Of a stretch of 64,000 bases of DNA, positions 6,068 to 63,827 are shown one piece after another. This DNA is from Lewinellaceae bacterium (GTDB lineage Bacteria; Bacteroidota; Bacteroidia; Chitinophagales; Saprospiraceae), in contig JACJXX010000002.1 in assembly GCA_020636435.1 (NCBI GenBank), positions 2,722,921 through 2,786,920 of the forward strand. The letters are read 5' to 3'. Under the pieces are notes generated by a model that was not told where the DNA came from, ran no database searches, and was given only the letters and a program-made list of their open reading frames with translations. Every line of letters starts with the position of its first letter. Position 1 is the stretch's first letter. The translations under genes and the position numbers were made by a program.

Positions 6068-6115
6068 GTGCGGATGTACGAATACACGAATTCACGGATA
6101 CATGGATGTACGGAT
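6068..6115. repeat. octamer word array, 6 units (GTRCGRAT-like)
   Basis: Reads gtgcggat gtacgaat acacgaat tcacggat acatggat gtacggat, with strict 8-nt period. It abuts the left end of the A1 core. Confidence 0.85.
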
Positions 6116-6330
6116 GAGGGTGCTCCGGAAACTATTGATGGCGAAGAATATTTTGTCCACCCCCTAAATCCTCCCGAAACTCGTTCGGGACAGGCTCCGC
6201 CAGCGGGGGACATTTCCTCCGATTCAGGGGTGTGTTTTCCCCCGCTGGCGGGGGGCAGGGGGTGGAGTCCAAATAAAATTTCCCATTATTGGGCACAGGA
6301 GTTCCAAACTAGACTTTCCGGAGTAGCCTC
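6116..6330. mobile_element. family A palindromic MITE-like core, copy A1 (215 bp)
   Basis: Identical to 18076-18266 apart from 3 substitutions and one 24-nt indel. TIRs are GAGGGTGCTCCGGAAA and GAGGCTACTCCGGAAA (reverse complement). It has an internal 14-bp hairpin CCGCCAGCGGGGGA/TCCCCCGCTGGCGG. Flanking direct repeats are ACGGAT and ACGGGT. Confidence 0.8.
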
Positions 6331-6444
6331 ACGGGTACAGGGGTACACGGGTGCACGGGTGCACGGGTGCACGGGTGCACGGGTACACGGGTACACGGGT
6401 GCACGGGTGCACGGGTACACGGGTACAGGGGTGCACGGGTGCAC
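6330..6444. repeat. octamer tandem array (CACGGGTR) x14
   Basis: 115 bp of strict 8-nt period with two CAGGGGTR variants. It ends one base before the complement of the ZIP gene stop codon at 6445-6447. Confidence 0.95.
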
Positions 6445-7213: not shown

Positions 7214-7314
7214 CTAGTCCAAGCGGCACGAATTAACGGGGCAGTTAAGAGCCCTGGAAACCTGGCTATATGGGCTACCGAAACTGCCCGGTTATTTCGT
7301 TCTAGTCGCACTAG
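7214..7314. mobile_element. family H palindromic element, copy H1 (101 bp)
   Basis: Bounded by CTAG at each end. The last 78 nt match the reverse complement of 34510-34587 with 1 mismatch. Confidence 0.75.
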
Positions 7315-7393
7315 CTCCTTTCCCGGTTTCGGCAAGGCCTGGGCCCGCCGCTTCGTGCGATCTTTTACTATGGCAGGCAAATGGCACTGGAAA

Positions 7394-17986: not shown

Positions 17987-18317
17987 CATACTACTGGACA
18001 TTTTAGGGGCTACCGTGTAAATGTGTGAAAGTGTAAACGTGTAAATGCTTGGGAATCCCGTTCTTTTACACATTTGAGGGTGCTCCGGAAACTATTGATG
18101 GCGAAGAATATTTTGTCCACCCCCTAAATCCCCCGCCAGCGGGGGACATTTCCTCCGATTCAGGGGTGTGTTTTCCCCCGCTGGCGGGGGTCAGGGGGTG
18201 GAGTCCAAATAAAATTTCCCATTATTGGGCACCGGAGTTCCAAGCTAGACTTTCCGGAGTAGCCTCACATTTACGCTCTTACACATTTACACGATCCGGC
18301 AAATGTCCAGTAGTATG
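17987..18317. mobile_element. composite MITE J (331 bp) carrying palindromic octamer arms and a nested A core
   Basis: The 17-bp TIR is perfect: CATACTACTGGACATTT (17987-18003) with AAATGTCCAGTAGTATG (18301-18317). The 9-bp TSD AATAGCATA is perfect, at 17978-17986 and 18318-18326. Confidence 0.9.
18076..18266. mobile_element. family A core, copy A2 (191 bp), nested in J
   Basis: Same sequence as 6116-6330 minus a 24-nt hairpin insert. It is flanked by a perfect 6-bp direct repeat ACATTT (18070-18075 and 18267-18272) within the GTGTAAAT/ACATTTAC octamer arms. Confidence 0.85.
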
Positions 18318-18988: not shown

Positions 18989-21100
18989 ATGAGTGCATGG
19001 AGAACGACGATAGAAGGCCTGCCTACCCTGGTAAAATACCTTATGGTCGCAGGAGTAGTGGCCTTCATTACCTTTTTGTTTCCCAATAATGCCAGATTCA
19101 AGTATGAATTTGACAAAGGGCAGCCCTGGCGGTACGAAGACCTCCGGGCGCCGTTTGACTTTGCCATCCGGAAGCCGGCGGAAGAAGTAGATGCCGAGAA
19201 AAATGCCCTGCGGGAAAATTTTACTCCTTTTTACGAACTGAACCTGGAAATCATCAAGGAGAAGAAACGAAGCCTGGCTGCGGAGTTCGACCACCAGTTG
19301 GAGTTGGTCATGGAAGAGGGGCAGTTTGAGGATGTAGTGAAAAAACCGGAGGAATACCTGCAATTTGGCAAGCGCTTTATGGAAAACCTCTTTAAACGCG
19401 GGATTTTACAACTGGCGCCCGAACATGAGGGCAGAGGAGGCGATTTTGTCATCAACGTCGTTCGCGGCAATACGACCCAGCCCCAAACCGTGGACAACCT
19501 GCTGTCGCTGGGAGAGGCCAAAGAATTGTTGAGCGATTCCCTGCCTTACAGCAAACTGGCGGAGCCCGAGTTCCTGTATCCCATCCTGGAAGGGCTGATC
19601 AGCCCCAACCTCACCTACAACGATACCCTGAGCCGGAAGATCATGGAGGAAGAGCTTTCGAAAGTGCCGGTTTACCGCGGCCGGGTCTCCAAAGGGCAAC
19701 TCATCGTGACGAAGGGAGCCTATATTACGGATGATATTTACCAGAAACTGATCTCCTTCCGGGCGCAGTACGAAGAGGAAATCACCAGCAAGCAGTCCTA
19801 TTGGGGAGTGCTCGTGGGATACCTGCTGCTGTCCTCCCTGATCATCGGCATTTTTCTCTTATACGTAAAGCTGTACGCCAGGCCGGTCTTTTCCAGCTTC
19901 AATAAGTTGATCTTCATATTGTTATGGCTGGTTGCCTACAGCTATATCGTTTATGCAGTGGAGCAGGTCGAGGTGTTGAGTACGTACATGATCCCTTTCT
20001 GCATATTGCCGATCGTAATCAAGAACTTTTACAATGAGCGGCTGGCGCTGTTCACCCATTTGGTGGTCGTGCTGTTGGCGAGTTTCCTGTCGAGCTTAGG
20101 GTACGAATTTGCCTTTCTGCAGATTCTGGCGGGCATCGTCGTTTTGCTGAGCGATGTGGAAACCCGGGAGTGGTCCCGTTTTTTCTATTCGATCTTTTTT
20201 ATCTTCCTGGTCTACGCCACCGGCTACCTGGGCTTGTCTCTGATCATAGAAGGCGACGTTATGGATGTGGACTGGACGGAGGTTTACTGGCTGGCGCTCA
20301 GCGCCTTTCTGACGCTTCTGGCCTATCCCCTTATCCCCTTGCTGGAGCGCTTCTTTGGTTTCACCTCCTCGATCACTCTGGTAGAACTGTCGGATATGAA
20401 CCGGCCACTGCTGCGGGAGTTGTCGCTGAAAGCGCCCGGCACCATGCAGCACTCTCTGCAGGTGGCCAACCTGGCGGATGAGGCCGCCCGGAAGATCGGA
20501 GCAAATCCCCTTCTGGTAAAAGTAGCAGCGCTGTACCACGATATTGGCAAAACCCTGAAACCAGAGTATTTTATCGAAAACCAAAGCGGCAAAAACCCCC
20601 ACGATGAACTTTCTGATTTAGAAAGCGCTCAGGTGATCATCAGCCACGTTTCGGAAGGCGTGAAGATGGCTAAAAAGGCCCGCCTGCCGTCTATCCTGGT
20701 CGATTTTATCAAAACCCACCACGGCACCACCCGGACAGAGTACTTCTACCGGAATTATGCCAATAAGCACCCGGATGAAAAGGTGGATGAGCATGATTTT
20801 CAATATCCCGGCCCCAAACCCCGAACCAAAGAAGAGACCATCCTGATGATGGCCGACTCTATAGAGGCTGCCTGCAAGAGCCTGAAAAGCCCTACTGAAG
20901 AAGGGCTCTTTAGCCTGATCGATAAAATCGTAGCCGGCAAGATCACCATGGGCCAGTTCGAGCATTCCAATATGACCTTTGAAGAACTGGAAGAATGCAA
21001 ACAGGTCTTCAAGCAGATGATGAAGTCGGTCCACCACGTGCGCATCGAGTATCCGGAAGAGAAAGCGGAAAAGGAGGAGGAGGAGCCGCAGAAGGGGTAG
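18989..21100 (+). CDS. 7TM-receptor/HDIG-domain phosphohydrolase (PgpH/YqfF-like)
   Basis: ATG at 18989 (MSAWRTTIEG). It has an extracellular N-domain, a multi-TM block, and a C-terminal HD domain with LYHDIGK and THHGT. Confidence 0.85.
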   Translation: MSAWRTTIEGLPTLVKYLMVAGVVAFITFLFPNNARFKYEFDKGQPWRYEDLRAPFDFAIRKPAEEVDAEKNALRENFTPFYELNLEIIKEKKRSLAAEFDHQLELVMEEGQFEDVVKKPEEYLQFGKRFMENLFKRGILQLAPEHEGRGGDFVINVVRGNTTQPQTVDNLLSLGEAKELLSDSLPYSKLAEPEFLYPILEGLISPNLTYNDTLSRKIMEEELSKVPVYRGRVSKGQLIVTKGAYITDDIYQKLISFRAQYEEEITSKQSYWGVLVGYLLLSSLIIGIFLLYVKLYARPVFSSFNKLIFILLWLVAYSYIVYAVEQVEVLSTYMIPFCILPIVIKNFYNERLALFTHLVVVLLASFLSSLGYEFAFLQILAGIVVLLSDVETREWSRFFYSIFFIFLVYATGYLGLSLIIEGDVMDVDWTEVYWLALSAFLTLLAYPLIPLLERFFGFTSSITLVELSDMNRPLLRELSLKAPGTMQHSLQVANLADEAARKIGANPLLVKVAALYHDIGKTLKPEYFIENQSGKNPHDELSDLESAQVIISHVSEGVKMAKKARLPSILVDFIKTHHGTTRTEYFYRNYANKHPDEKVDEHDFQYPGPKPRTKEETILMMADSIEAACKSLKSPTEEGLFSLIDKIVAGKITMGQFEHSNMTFEELEECKQVFKQMMKSVHHVRIEYPEEKAEKEEEEPQKG

Positions 21101-21375
21101 GGATTGTGGTGAAATGGAACGCGAATGCAATGCCTGCCCGCCAGGTGCTAATCTTTATACACAATTTTGGCCTGAGCCTGGTGGCGATCTCAACCTGCCG
21201 GGTTTTCAATAGGGTCCGGTTCGGCAAACCCGGCAGTGTTTATCGGAGAAATAACAAAGTGGCTTTACTTCAATAAACACTACCGGGTTCAGCCAAGAGG
21301 GGCTACCCCGCAAACCCGGCAGGTTAAGTTATCCATATAGCAGGCGGGCAGGAGGGTTCTTTTCGCATATTTTTT

Positions 21376-21492
21376 GGCTACCCGTCTAGCGTTGGACAAT
21401 AGCTGCCGGGGTTGTGTACGGTGTACGGGTCCAAAGTGGCTGTGTACGGTGTACGAAGCACCACCTGGCTGTCCAACATTAGAACGGTAGCC
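21376..21492. mobile_element. family D MITE, copy D1 (117 bp)
   Basis: TIRs are GGCTACCCGTCTAGCGTTGGACAA and CTGTCCAACATTAGAACGGTAGCC. The 8-bp TSD TATTTTTT is perfect, at 21368-21375 and 21493-21500. The interior carries GTGTACGG octamers. Confidence 0.9.
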
Positions 21493-21499
21493 TATTTTT

Positions 21500-21691
21500 T
21501 TATGCATTTCCTTCACTTTCCTGCCTTTGTTTATCCGGTACCGGCTCTTCTTTTCTGTATCCATAAGGGCAGTGCCGGCATCCGCTTTGGCAACAGTAGC
21601 CCCGTTTCAGCAGAAAGTGTTCTGTGAATACGAACAAGCCGTTTTCGGTATAGTAATCGATGCCCTCCCGGAGGGCTTGTGGCTTTGGCAT
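21500..21691 (-). CDS. small Cys-rich protein (DUF5522-like)
   Basis: ATG at 21691 gives MPKPQALREGIDYYTENGLFVFTEHFLLKRGYCCQSGCRHCPYGY. The family name is from memory. Confidence 0.55.
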   Translation of the reverse strand: MPKPQALREGIDYYTENGLFVFTEHFLLKRGYCCQSGCRHCPYGYRKEEPVPDKQRQESEGNA

Positions 21692-21797
21692 GGTAAGGCT
21701 CTGTTTAAGGATAACCTGGAACGTTGAACATAGAACCCGCCTGGCACAGCCGGGCAAACTCCGAACACTCCCTCCCTCCACCCGGAAGTTTCTTCTT

Positions 21798-22506: not shown

Positions 22507-22676
22507 CTTTGACGCCAGACTGTCCAAGGTCTAGCCTATGAATGTCGCAAAAATAACTCAATTCCCAAAAGAGGCCGTAAGATAACCCCACAAATTCTGG
22601 AAAATGAAACCTACAGGGCAGCCAACGGAATAATATAACAAAAATAAACCGGATTTGGATTGGCCGCGTTCCATAA

Positions 22677-22837
22677 GAGCGTGTTGGGATTTTCATGCTG
22701 AAGTTGAAAATGAGCAAATTTTGCCTCAATCAAGGCCCGTACGGGCAGTCGGATGCGGGCAATCCGGCGAAAAATTTAACGCCGAGTGAGGGAAAATTTG
22801 CCATTTGCAGGCCAGCAATGGAATTCCCAACACGCTC
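22677..22837. mobile_element. family E MITE-like element, copy E1 (161 bp)
   Basis: TIRs are GAGCGTGTTGGGA and TCCCAACACGCTC. It is flanked by TAA at 22674-22676 and 22838-22840. Confidence 0.8.
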
Positions 22838-22883
22838 TAAGGTGTATCCGGAAGCAGGCACGGCGCGTTGGGCGATCCCCTAA

Positions 22884-23045
22884 GAGCATGTTTGGAGGTG
22901 GTGCTTTGGAAGCGAAAATGGCAGATTTTGGGTTCTGATGAAGCTCATTTTCGAGCGCATAGCAGCGCTACGGGCGAGAAAATAGCTGAAATCAGGTTCC
23001 AAAAGTGGCCATTTGCAGCCCAAATGACTACCTCCAAACATGCTC
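22884..23045. mobile_element. family E MITE-like element, copy E2 (162 bp)
   Basis: TIRs are GAGCATGTTTGGAGG and CCTCCAAACATGCTC. It is flanked by TAA at 22881-22883 and 23046-23048. Internal blocks shared with E1 include GAAAATG.GCA.ATTTTG and GCCATTTGCAG. Confidence 0.8.
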
Positions 23046-23048
23046 TAA

Positions 23049-23428
23049 AACTACTTTCTTACTTTAAAATTTAGCTGGCTTGGGAGCGCGGGCCTCCAGG
23101 CCCGCCAGGGCAATTGCATTTGAATAAAACTGACCTCGAAGAGGTCATATATCTATAGAAAAGGAATGTTTGCCCCTTCGACCTCAAAGAGGTCGTACAA
23201 ATGGACATAAGTACGACCTCTTTGAGGTCGAAAATTCTCATAATCGGTGAATTTCTATAGATATTTGACCCGCTTTGGGGTCAATAACATTTAAATGCGA
23301 TTGCCCTGCCAGGCCCGCGAAGGCTGCCTCAGGCAGCCCTTAAAAGGCAGTTGTTTACTAAAAACCTGCTTCAAGCAGGTTTTCGCGGGCCTGGAGGCCC
23401 GCGCTCCTTTTAAAGTAACAAAGTAGTA
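23049..23428. mobile_element. family B element, copy B2 (380 bp), containing nested element Q
   Basis: Shell TIRs are CTACTTTCTTACTTTAA (23051-23067) and TTAAAGTAACAAAGTAG (23410-23426). The second layer is GGAGCGCGGGCCTCCAGGCCCGC with GCGGGCCTGGAGGCCCGCGCTCC. Outside Q, the interior is collinear with B3. Confidence 0.85.
23106..23308. mobile_element. element Q (203 bp) inserted inside B2
   Basis: TIRs are CAGGGCAATTGCATTTGAAT and ATTTAAATGCGATTGCCCTG (18/20). The 10-bp TSD CCAGGCCCGC is perfect, at 23096-23105 and 23309-23318; B3 has a single copy of this site. Inner layers are a 13-bp perfect palindrome ATATCTATAGAAA/TTTCTATAGATAT and a 22-bp perfect hairpin (23177-23198 with 23211-23232). 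Confidence 0.9.
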
Positions 23429-23440
23429 ATAAATAAATCT

Positions 23441-27985: not shown

Positions 27986-28000
27986 TTCTATCTATCTGGC

Positions 28001-28101
28001 GGCTACCCTTCTAAGGTTGGACAGCCACAGGCTCGGTCTTGGCTGGCATCGTACATCGTACACAGTCCATGCAATTTTTGTCCAACGTTAGACGAGTAGC
28101 C
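28001..28101. mobile_element. family D MITE, copy D2 (101 bp)
   Basis: TIRs are GGCTACCCTTCTAAGGTTGGACAG and TTGTCCAACGTTAGACGAGTAGCC. The 8-bp TSD TATCTGGC is perfect, at 27993-28000 and 28102-28109. Confidence 0.9.
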
Positions 28102-28454
28102 TATCTGGCTAGAATGGCCTTCCTGATTTGGGCCTCCGCTCCAGCTTGCAATCGGAAGACATACACGCCTGGCGCCAATTTGCCCGCTTCAAAAGAGCGT
28201 TCATAACGGCCAGCCGGCAGGCGCTCGTTGGCCAGTGTTGCCACTTTCCGACCCGTCGCGTCGTGTTCGCTGAGAGTTACCTGTGCAGAATACGGCACTC
28301 GAAACCGAGCCCAGGTTACTGCCTTAAACGGATCGGGGTAGCAATCGAGTACGAGGCCACCTGCTGTGGTAGGGGAAGAAATGCCAGTTAGTGTATTTTG
28401 AAATCTCGCCACGGCAAGGTCATAACTTGTTCCAACGCTCGCGCCGGACATCAC
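28101..28454 (-). pseudogene. orphan T9SS C-terminal sorting domain (remnant of a cargo gene)
   Basis: 117-aa ORF. The last ~80 aa are Por_Secre_tail-like (CYPDPFKAVTWARFRVPYSAQVTLSEHDATGRKVATL...GVYVFRLQAG). It has no signal peptide and no passenger domain. The stop codon spans the D2/TSD junction. Confidence 0.5.
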
Positions 28455-33131: not shown

Positions 33132-34277
33132 TTACTTTTTCATAATAAGCTGAGATCTGCGCCAATTGGTGCTTCCAGTACCCGAAATAACTACATTGTA
33201 CATTCCTGAAGAAAAATCCGCTATAGAAATCCGTTCGATTGAATTGACGGCTTCCAAAGTTTGCTCAAAAACAATCCTACCAAAAGGATCGAAGAGCTGT
33301 ATCGTTGCGGGATGCCCTTGAAACATCGCCGAAAATGGAATATGCAGCTGGTCTTCCGCTGGATTCGGAAAGATAAATCGATTTCCACAATCTTCAACAG
33401 TAAAAGATGCACCGGTCACGTCGAGTGCGCCGCAGATGGTTCCACCGCCCTGCACGAGCAGGCCGTTGACGTCAAACCCGGTAGTAACGCCAAACTGCAC
33501 GATGCCCAGGTCAAGGGTGTTTGGGTCGTAGACCAGGGTGTGAATGGTGTACCTGCCGGTGGCATTTACATTGAACTCCGGCTCGTCGCTGACATCCCGT
33601 ATAACCAGCCCGCTGCCCTGGGTCAATACGTAGATGACTTCATAGCCGTCGGGCACTTCGGGGCCGTCGTCTTTTTCCGCTTCGATCGCCGCTGTGCCAT
33701 TGCCAAGGCAATCCTGATCTTCGGGTTCTAGGGTGCCGGCGTCGGCTTCGCAGGAGCAGTCGTCGACGGTAAACTGTGCGCCGGCCACGTCGAGGGCGCC
33801 GCAGATGGTTCCGCCGCCCTGCACGAGCAGGCCGTTGACGTCAAAGCCGGTGGTGCTGCCGAACTGCACGATGCCCAGGTCGAGGGTGTTGGGGTCGTAG
33901 ACCAGGGTGTGGATGGTGTAGTCGCCTGTGGCGTCGACGGTAAATTCCGGCTCGCCGCTGACGGCCTGGATGACCAGCCCGCTGCCCTGGGTCAGCACGT
34001 AGATGACTTCGTAGCCGTCGGGCACTTCGGGGCTGTCGTCTTTTTCCGCTTCGATCGCCGCTGTGCCATTGCCAAGGCAATCCTGATCTTCGGGTTCTAG
34101 GGTGCCGGCGTCGGCTTCGCACCGGCGATTTTCAAATGCGAATCCGCTTTCGCCCGCATCCATAGAAACCATCGGGTGAAGGCTTGTAGCTGTCAGCGGT
34201 TTAAACAAGAGGCCGTTACAAAGGAAAAGAGCCAGCAAGTACAGCTTGAAACTTTTTGAGTAGATTACTAATGCCAT
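33132..34277 (-). CDS. T9SS cargo protein with two tandem 123-aa repeats
   Basis: 381 aa with a signal peptide. The repeats (aa 53-175 and 176-298) begin CEADAGTLEPEDQDCLGNGTAAIEAEKDD. The C-terminus is Por_Secre_tail-like (FPNPAEDQLHIPF...GMYNVVISG). Confidence 0.8.
   Translation of the reverse strand: MALVIYSKSFKLYLLALFLCNGLLFKPLTATSLHPMVSMDAGESGFAFENRRCEADAGTLEPEDQDCLGNGTAAIEAEKDDSPEVPDGYEVIYVLTQGSGLVIQAVSGEPEFTVDATGDYTIHTLVYDPNTLDLGIVQFGSTTGFDVNGLLVQGGGTICGALDVAGAQFTVDDCSCEADAGTLEPEDQDCLGNGTAAIEAEKDDGPEVPDGYEVIYVLTQGSGLVIRDVSDEPEFNVNATGRYTIHTLVYDPNTLDLGIVQFGVTTGFDVNGLLVQGGGTICGALDVTGASFTVEDCGNRFIFPNPAEDQLHIPFSAMFQGHPATIQLFDPFGRIVFEQTLEAVNSIERISIADFSSGMYNVVISGTGSTNWRRSQLIMKK
33384..34121. 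repeat. 369-bp tandem duplication inside the cargo CDS
   Basis: There are two in-frame units. Stretches such as CTTTTTCCGCTTCGATCGCCGCTGTGCCATTGCCAAGGCAATCCTGATCTTCGGGTTCTAGGGTGCCGGCGTCGGCTTCGCA are identical in both (starting 33671 and 34040). Confidence 0.9.
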
Positions 34278-34509
34278 AGTTTTGAGATTGTTATGAAAAG
34301 GAGATATTGCATGTTTTCAATATAGCCCAGGCTTTCCAGCCGAGAAGCCCATCGCTGCAAATGCGAGAACCGGCTTTTTATGAGAGCGTACAAATACTGA
34401 AAAGGCGAACAACAGAGGCAAGGAACCTGTTCACGCCAACATCGAAACACGATGGCAGAAGTTGCAGAAAAGACAACTACTTTGCAAAATGGAGATTTAA
34501 CCGACCTGG

Positions 34510-34610
34510 CTAGTGCGACTATAACGAAATAACCGGGCAGTTTCGGTAGCCCATATAGCCAGGTTTCCAGGGCTCTTAACTGCCCCGCTATTTAGTGCGC
34601 GAGGCACTAG
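34510..34610. mobile_element. family H palindromic element, copy H2 (101 bp, inverted relative to H1)
   Basis: Bounded by CTAG. The right-hand CTAG (34607-34610) contains the TAG stop codon of the PorP/SprF gene. Confidence 0.75.
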
Positions 34611-63630: not shown

Positions 63631-63650
63631 TAAACAATTTTTAGGCAAAA

Positions 63651-63674
63651 AAACCGGCCACAACCGGCCGGTTT
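63651..63674. terminator. bidirectional intrinsic-terminator-like hairpin
   Basis: AAACCGGCC (63651-63659) pairs with GGCCGGTTT (63666-63674). On the minus strand the GC stem is followed by a 7-nt T run. Confidence 0.55.
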
Positions 63675-63827
63675 CCAAAAGAGCTTTGAGAGGCTATCTA
63701 CATGCCAAAATTGAGGGCGTCCTTTGATACCCCCGAAATCTTTCATAGGAATTTAATTGCATTCGCGGGATTTGCACCTGCGATTGCCCCACCTTTCCTG
63801 TAAATCCCGTTTATCCCGTCATCCTGT

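Follow-up and report, generated by a model that had tools for sequence, protein, structure and literature searches.

Dispersed 8-bp-duplicating MITEs in a Lewinellaceae genome and their probable relation to insertion sequences encoding DUF6399 proteins

IS256 elements are prokaryotic insertion sequences (ISs) that generate target duplications of 8-9 bp, and ISL3 elements generate duplications of 8 bp and have ends beginning GGCT. The hAT elements, which are eukaryotic, also duplicate 8 bp of target, and the Hermes transposase has the same core-plus-helical-insertion layout as the protein model presented below. REP elements are moved by tyrosine transposases and leave no target duplication. IS892 of Anabaena PCC 7120, reportedly described by Cai in 1991, is said to measure 1,675 bp, to carry two reading frames, to have inverted repeats of ~24 bp and to duplicate 8 bp of target; it is filed under ISNCY in ISfinder. 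Shorter elements of the MITE type are known from bacteria, for instance MITEAba12 of Acinetobacter (PMC6382973), and have been reviewed (PMC10969869).

The window analyzed here, a stretch of 64,000 nucleotides from a Lewinellaceae bacterium, contains two elements, D1 and D2, which resemble bacterial MITEs in being ~100 bp long and non-coding, in their terminal inverted repeats and duplication of fixed length, in a dispersed and mostly intergenic distribution, and in sharing their ends with an IS. They differ from known MITEs in the sequence of the ends, in the host clade (Saprospiraceae/Lewinellaceae) and in the parent family, as well as in the many subfamilies with unrelated interiors that stand here behind one pair of ends.

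Anatomy and genomic context of D1 and D2

The initial annotation had reported two inverted-repeat elements in the window, and their coordinates, sequences and inverted ends were recovered as described, the arms measuring 23 bp where about 24 bp had been claimed. D1 spans 21376-21492 (117 bp) with the layout TATTTTTT / GGCTACCCGTCTAGCGTTGGACA ... TGTCCAACATTAGAACGGTAGCC / TATTTTTT, and D2 spans 28001-28101 (101 bp) with the layout TATCTGGC / GGCTACCCTTCTAAGGTTGGACA ... TGTCCAACGTTAGACGAGTAGCC / TATCTGGC. The exact 8-bp duplications said to adjoin both elements were verified, TATTTTTT at D1 and TATCTGGC at D2. The individual features, in window positions, are as follows:

21368-21375, no strand: D1 left target-site duplication TATTTTTT, a single copy of which stands at the empty site in contig L135
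21376-21398, plus strand: D1 left terminal inverted repeat GGCTACCCGTCTAGCGTTGGACA, matching the consensus at every position, nhmmer E 1.3e-7
21410-21427, plus strand: D1 internal direct repeat, copy 1, GGTTGTGTACGGTGTACG, with two GTGTACG heptamers (repeat family D10)
21438-21455, plus strand: D1 internal direct repeat, copy 2, GGCTGTGTACGGTGTACG, mostly inside the 16-column gap opposite D2
21470-21492, minus strand: D1 right terminal inverted repeat, GGCTACCGTTCTAATGTTGGACA in minus-strand reading, matched by consensus and profile
21493-21500, no strand: D1 right target-site duplication TATTTTTT
27993-28000, no strand: D2 left target-site duplication TATCTGGC, 7 bp past the cupin stop (27985)
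28001-28023, plus strand: D2 terminal inverted repeat GGCTACCCTTCTAAGGTTGGACA, which, extended by the 3 bases that follow, agrees with the right end of the L059 IS at 25 of 26 positions
28050-28063, minus strand: D2 heptamer pair, GTGTACGATGTACG in minus-strand reading
28079-28101, minus strand: D2 second terminal inverted repeat, GGCTACTCGTCTAACGTTGGACA in minus-strand reading
28102-28109, no strand: D2 right target-site duplication TATCTGGC

D1 and D2 are crossed by short spurious ORFs only and are thus non-coding. The left and right arms of the 23-bp repeat agree at 19 of 23 positions in D1 and at 20 of 23 in D2. The repeat consensus matched the window exactly four times, at the four D1/D2 arms, and found no match in 100 dinucleotide-preserving shuffles; likewise, a profile built from 156 arms of related elements reached a significant E-value in the window only at these same four sites. 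In the family profile, the near-fixed arm positions 1-7, 10-13 and 16-23 read GGCTACC, TCTA and GTTGGACA, and the mismatches in the D1/D2 arms are found at positions 7-9 and 14-15, which are mostly family-variable.

The two interiors had been taken to differ, and this proved to be wrong: D2 is a reverse-oriented D1 with one internal repeat fewer. The plus strand of D1 and the minus strand of D2 could be aligned end to end, with identity at 75 of 101 aligned positions (74%) and one 16-nt gap, and an 18-bp unit, GGYTGTGTACGGTGTACG, is present in two copies in D1 and in one copy in D2. The GTACGG/CGTACA-type words that had been noted in both elements do occur in both, but they are not separate words, since they represent the heptamer GTGTACG on opposite strands. 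A length variant of D1 with eight additional internal bases was observed in two metagenome contigs.

Regarding genomic context, D1 lies between a 7TM-HD receptor gene (plus strand, ending at 21100) and a DUF5522 gene (minus strand, 21500-21781), whose TAA stop codon has as its third base the last base of the D1 right octamer (21500); a gene call in contig L137 ends at the same base. D2 is located 7 bp past the stop of the cupin gene and on its other side directly adjoins the TAG stop codon of an ORF of 116 aa (minus strand, 28101-28451), this TAG being composed of the TA of the D2 right duplication and the last base of the repeat. Both copies are found at stop codons of convergent genes. At D1 the insertion leaves the stop codon unchanged, as seen by comparison with contig L135, and at D2 the same TAG would be expected at the unoccupied site, as predicted from its sequence. 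No transposase gene was found within the 64-kb window. The 116-aa ORF itself gave a weak match to a type IX secretion C-terminal sorting domain (E 0.0034, which does not reach the cut-off) and is possibly a lineage-specific fragment.

Several other repeats were observed in the window. The segment 22412-22530 is a 119-bp indel polymorphism: it is absent from contig L138, which carries a single TCTGAATG there between flanks 99.9% and 100% identical to the window, and in the window its left border is TCTGAATG and its right border TATGAATG. A shortened D-type repeat, GGCTAGACCTTGGACAG, forms one of its ends, the other end is without a repeat, and the interior holds GGAAG-type heptamer repeats, as does D subfamily 2. 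Positions 6115-6332 and 18075-18268 form a repeat pair of ~195-218 bp (98% identity over 136 bp) with the ends TGAGGGTGCTCCGGAAA...TTTCCGGAGTAGCCTCA, probably representing another MITE family. Within a region of dense nested inverted repeats (22676-23430) sits a 164-bp element (22883-23046) with 27-bp inverted ends, AGAGCATGTTTGGAGGTGGT, of which an 84% identical copy is present in the Phaeodactylibacter contig L113. Additionally, we observed an inverted pair of ~102-bp repeats (7214-7315 and 34509-34610) with the ends CTAGTCC...GCACTAG, a 345-bp tandem duplicate of 90% identity (33408-34121), and a 111-bp segment (63647-63757) common to two Lewinellaceae loci.

The empty D1 site and the distribution of the family

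Relatives of the D1 region were located via the neighboring DUF6580 gene; an exact-sequence look-up of the DUF5522 protein came back empty because gene callers had picked a later start. Activated-sludge contigs, including those of assembly GCA_020436565.1, are 98.7-100% identical to the window, and a Phaeodactylibacter contig is about 80% identical to it over 4 kb. Contig L135 (ENA ERZ28655789), with 98.6% identity to the window over 1.7 kb beside D1, reads TTCTTTTCGCA TATTTTTT TATGCATTTCC at the D1 site (longer left flank, GGAGGGTTCTTTTCGCA), that is, one octamer and no element, and this allele corresponds exactly to the window sequence less D1 and less one octamer. Other contigs of the same population carry D1, and five of the ten contigs covering its neighboring gene end inside it, as is expected of assemblers at repeated or polymorphic sequence. 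The empty D1 site constitutes direct evidence of recent movement for this family.

The comparison with empty sites that had been suggested for both copies was thus successful at D1, with a precise empty site, and not at D2, for which no empty allele was found: D2 is present in all ten of the ten cupin-bearing contigs, and the predicted 22-mer of its empty site, TTCTATCTATCTGGCTAGAATG, had no exact match in the metagenome collection. The nearest orthologous cupin loci are only 62-64% identical at the protein level. In distant orthologous loci the cupin gene is followed directly by the glycosyltransferase gene, at about 40-120 bp, and between the two genes of the orthologous loci neither a D-type repeat nor a homologue of the 116-aa ORF was detected; judged by sequence, these loci show what would be the ancestral arrangement, the cupin gene directly followed by the glycosyltransferase gene. 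The case named beforehand as speaking against transposition, a related genome with the octamer duplicated and the element missing, was not encountered.

For the family scan, one genome per species was searched with the query GGCTACNNNTCTANNGTTGGACA, and the same terminal repeat was found at no fewer than 120 loci in these species-representative genomes; among the matches listed, nearly all are in assemblies named Saprospiraceae, Lewinellaceae or Phaeodactylibacter. Pairing of the arms, with four mismatches allowed per arm and with the window plus the 120 listed related loci as input, yielded at least 91 paired elements of 93-258 bp. It had been anticipated that additional copies would keep the 8-bp duplication, and they do: among the 91 listed paired elements, the 8-bp flanks are perfect in 63 and carry one mismatch in 14, and none fits a 9-bp duplication. 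The duplicated octamers have a G+C content of 41% versus about 54% for the genome and exhibit a weak G...C preference at their outer positions. When insertion sites were restored by removing the element and one octamer, an open frame of at least 150 codons was present at 16% of them versus 74% of random positions in the same loci.

Alignment separated at least six subfamilies with unrelated interiors and common ends. The subfamily of D1 and D2, GTGTACGRTGTACG, has members of 113-126 bp at many unrelated loci in several assemblies. The earlier argument that these elements reflect transposition and not chance symmetry is therefore upheld by the shuffles (0 of 100 matched), by the empty D1 site and by the family-wide 8-bp duplications. 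Likewise, the features by which MITEs are recognized were all observed, namely a short non-coding body, inverted repeats, a constant duplication, dispersed copies, ends shared with an IS and, for D1, an empty site, and the interpretation of D1 and D2 as MITEs is supported.

Regarding the interiors, a strong lag-7 periodicity was observed across 78 D-superfamily elements (D1/D2 of the window and loci L003-L118), being present in 44 of the 78, with a match fraction of 0.367, other lags giving 0.24-0.28 and shuffles 0.267 +/- 0.006. The tandem heptamers vary by subfamily and include GTGTACG, GAAGTCG, GGTTCGC, GAACTAT and GTTGCCG. Heptamer repeats have been reported as over-represented in bacteria, with polymerase slippage proposed as the cause (PMC4692102). 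In the assembly JAOZMU01, labelled Bacteroidales, twelve contigs (L001, L005, L014, L020, L021, L023, L041, L043, L071, L102, L106 and L120) terminate 24-31 bp into a D-type repeat with two recurring interiors, which suggests that a multi-copy full-length element breaks this assembly.

Insertion sequences with related ends and their DUF6399 protein

Protein-coding elements with the same or closely related ends were found, 1.67-1.71 kb in length and with 8-bp duplications. At L110:1-1670, in a Chitinophagales assembly, lies an element whose 24-bp ends, GGCTACCCGTCTAAAGTTGGACAG, are perfect and which has two overlapping frames of 187 and 360 aa. In L059, which belongs to a MITE-rich Lewinellaceae assembly, a homologous C-terminus runs into the end GGCTACCCGTCTAAGGTTGGACAGCC, which shares 25 of 26 positions with the D2 arm and is also found at contig ends of a Phaeodactylibacter assembly. 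The P0002 element (L141:2385-4096) is 1,712 bp long, has a perfect repeat of 25 bp, GGCTACCCACCAAAAGTTGGGCAAG, and encodes a protein of 44% identity; three copies are present in one long-contig assembly, each with a perfect 8-bp duplication. The L144 element is flanked by the duplication GGGTGCTT. In the full-length elements examined, the only coding content between the ends is the DUF6399 protein together with its upstream frame. Matching 8-bp flanks were absent from seven full-length copies on contigs of short-read metagenomes (L146-149 and L209-211), a probable outcome of chimeric assembly across a multi-copy repeat, which is supported by the right flank of L148 being the left flank of L149. 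Two further candidates for full-length ISs were rejected as separate elements: L093:738-2182 has no transposase-like ORF between its repeats and gave no tblastn match, and for L067:83-4691 a tblastn search across all loci returned no transposase.

A split of the reading frame recurs at one position in four elements, whose proteins share 42-61% identity with that of L110. Measured against the upstream frame, the downstream one is -1 in every case, and the overlap holds T7G, within CCTTTTTTTGAAGAA or TATTTTTTTGAAAA, at L110:571-600 and at the equivalent site in L144, L146 and L150; the intact relative L209 has T6 at this position. From its sequence, the T7G motif may be a programmed -1 frameshift or transcriptional slippage site giving OrfA and OrfAB.

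The protein has ~520 aa, in which Pfam recognizes an N-terminal helix-turn-helix, the C-terminal DUF6399 and no other domain. Its homologues number 847 in a word-indexed search and 3,337 clusters at 50% identity in a full profile search; the source names shown are "hypothetical", "DUF6399 domain-containing" and, in two rows, an ArsR-type regulator, with none other. In RefSeq, multi-copy DUF6399 genes are found on plasmids of the cyanobacteria Acaryochloris and Crinalium. An alignment of 30 full-length members revealed invariant DET (D143), SD (D199) and EGRN (E443) motifs (P0002 numbering). A confident AlphaFold model computed with 81 aligned sequences (pLDDT 92, pTM 0.87) predicts a five-stranded RNase-H-like sheet with D143 on the first strand and D199 after the fourth, and places E443 on a helix that follows an all-helical insertion of ~215 residues. 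On the basis of this predicted fold and of the conserved residues, the DUF6399 protein looks like a transposase. Curated NCBIfam and Pfam transposase models did not recognize it (the best, ISL3, reached 16.7 bits, the cut-off being 180), a profile search against PDB sequences returned only helix-turn-helix and coiled-coil noise, and a literature search gave no mention of DUF6399 and nothing relevant on a new 8-bp-duplication family.

When the model was compared with the PDB using Foldseek, the best match was the hAT transposase Hermes (4d1q; E 6.8e-4, probability 1.00), the predicted protein sharing with it an RNase-H-like DDE core split by an all-helical insertion. It differs from hAT in an identity of 13%, a TM-score of 0.32 and a winged helix-turn-helix N-terminus, and Pfam, searched up to E 1, listed neither a hAT nor a zinc-finger (BED) family. 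The second match was ISCth4 of IS256 (6xgx; E 1.9e-3), with a helical insertion in the catalytic domain that the model would share; Mu, retroviral integrases and Mos1 came next. The protein differs from IS256 transposases in its larger size and in the frameshifted, two-frame organization of some members, and the NCBIfam IS256 model gave E 1.4 at 8 bits, so that IS256 was rejected as parent by sequence model and the similarity is structural only. Among the transposase models, a sequence signal was obtained with ISL3 only (E 0.003, in the region of the first two catalytic aspartates), and this family was likewise rejected as parent, NF033550 scoring 16.7 bits against the cut-off of 180 in one of three proteins and no ISL3 family appearing in Pfam at E up to 1.

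In its reported dimensions only, IS892 is almost the same as the L110 element (1,670 bp, 24-bp ends, 8-bp duplication, two frames), and DUF6399 proteins are also present in cyanobacteria, but the terminal bases reported for IS892, CTAG, bear no obvious match to GGCTAC. The parent IS family may thus already be known under another name, such as IS892, to which it is likened by reported dimensions. As a broader and tentative proposal, to which we give slightly less than even credence, DUF6399 proteins could be the transposases of a widespread prokaryotic IS family missed by curated resources, which would be characterized by a length of 1.67-1.71 kb, ~24-bp GGCTAC ends, an 8-bp duplication, a hAT/IS256-like DDE fold, a U7G -1 frameshift in one clade and many heptamer-built MITE subfamilies in Saprospiraceae.

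Proposed mode of movement and alternative explanations

We regard it as very likely that D1 and D2 are two opposite-orientation copies of a non-autonomous MITE, for which the transposase would be provided in trans by a DUF6399-encoding IS. In D1 and D2, the ~23-bp ends (GGCTACC..TCTA..GTTGGACA) would be the sole part recognized by the transposase, which would be supplied from elsewhere by a 1.67-1.71 kb IS with the same ends as a ~520-aa protein composed of an N-terminal helix-turn-helix, an RNase-H-like DDE core, an all-helical insertion and a C-terminal DUF6399. The enzyme would bind both ends and join them to a target cut with an 8-bp stagger, the repair of which would produce the 8-bp duplication. 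The targets used are AT-rich, and the surviving insertions are mostly intergenic. That the DUF6399 protein moves D1 and D2 is suggested by the shared ends in combination with the structural model.

The identity of these ends with those of a 1.7-kb IS would also be expected if D1 and D2 were remnants of such ISs, with the interior deleted in place, that never moved as short elements, and MITEs are indeed thought to arise in this way. However, the short GTGTACGRTGTACG interior (113-126 bp) is found at many unrelated loci in several genomes, which implies that it spread as a short element; past the ~24-27 bp ends, no similarity to the subterminal sequence of L110 or L059 was visible where these were read; and the empty D1 site bears no trace of a larger element. 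Deletion in place is thus largely refuted, and we consider it highly improbable. A different objection concerns the DUF6399 protein, since genuine MITEs might be moved by another, recognized transposase, for instance of the ISL3 family, with DUF6399 as a passenger or regulator. ISL3 likewise combines 8-bp duplications with GGCT ends, its model gave the weak match at E 0.003, and the transposase role of DUF6399 is a prediction from sequence and model. Against this stand the DDE fold with its invariant D, D and E, the DUF6399 protein being the sole coding content of every full-length element examined, and the extension of its reading frame into the right-hand repeat in L059; we judge such an arrangement extremely unlikely.

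Finally, D1 and D2 could be REP/BIME-type palindromes, structured RNAs or terminators with a host function, their symmetry being that of a hairpin. Both are indeed located directly 3' of genes and between convergent genes, D2 folds more stably than shuffled versions of itself (z -3.8), and a run of T follows D1. Hairpin folding of D1, however, is no better than that of shuffles (z -1.5), the T run is target sequence, an Rfam search of the window returned zero families, and a promoter and terminator scan of the window revealed nothing above shuffles and no terminator-like site at D1 or D2. The conservation of ends between subfamilies with unrelated interiors points to recognition of the ends by a protein, and a near-identical strain lacks D1. 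REP/BIME elements with a tyrosine transposase were also rejected on the grounds that 8-bp duplications are the rule here and that the ends belong to a DDE-type element. A host function of this kind therefore appears to us very unlikely, and movement as a MITE with transposase supplied in trans is retained as the preferred explanation.

The D1/D2 family is real and recently mobile, and elements of this kind are ordinary. Both copies are selfish repeats; they lie at the 3' ends of genes in convergent orientation and leave the coding sequences unaltered. They should be masked and not annotated as genes or RNAs, and they explain the breaks of the population's short-read contigs at these positions. 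The MITE family is new, and the added value, which is modest, lies with its parent: DUF6399, the sole annotation that the parent protein carries in the records seen here, appears to be the transposase of an unannotated IS family. A concrete, testable role is given to a Pfam domain of unknown function, and the ends, the duplication length and a candidate frameshift site are defined for an IS family missed by current annotation pipelines. Once recognized, the family would allow mobile elements to be better annotated in Saprospiraceae (activated sludge, marine) and cyanobacteria, and would help to explain the fragmented metagenome-assembled genomes of both groups.
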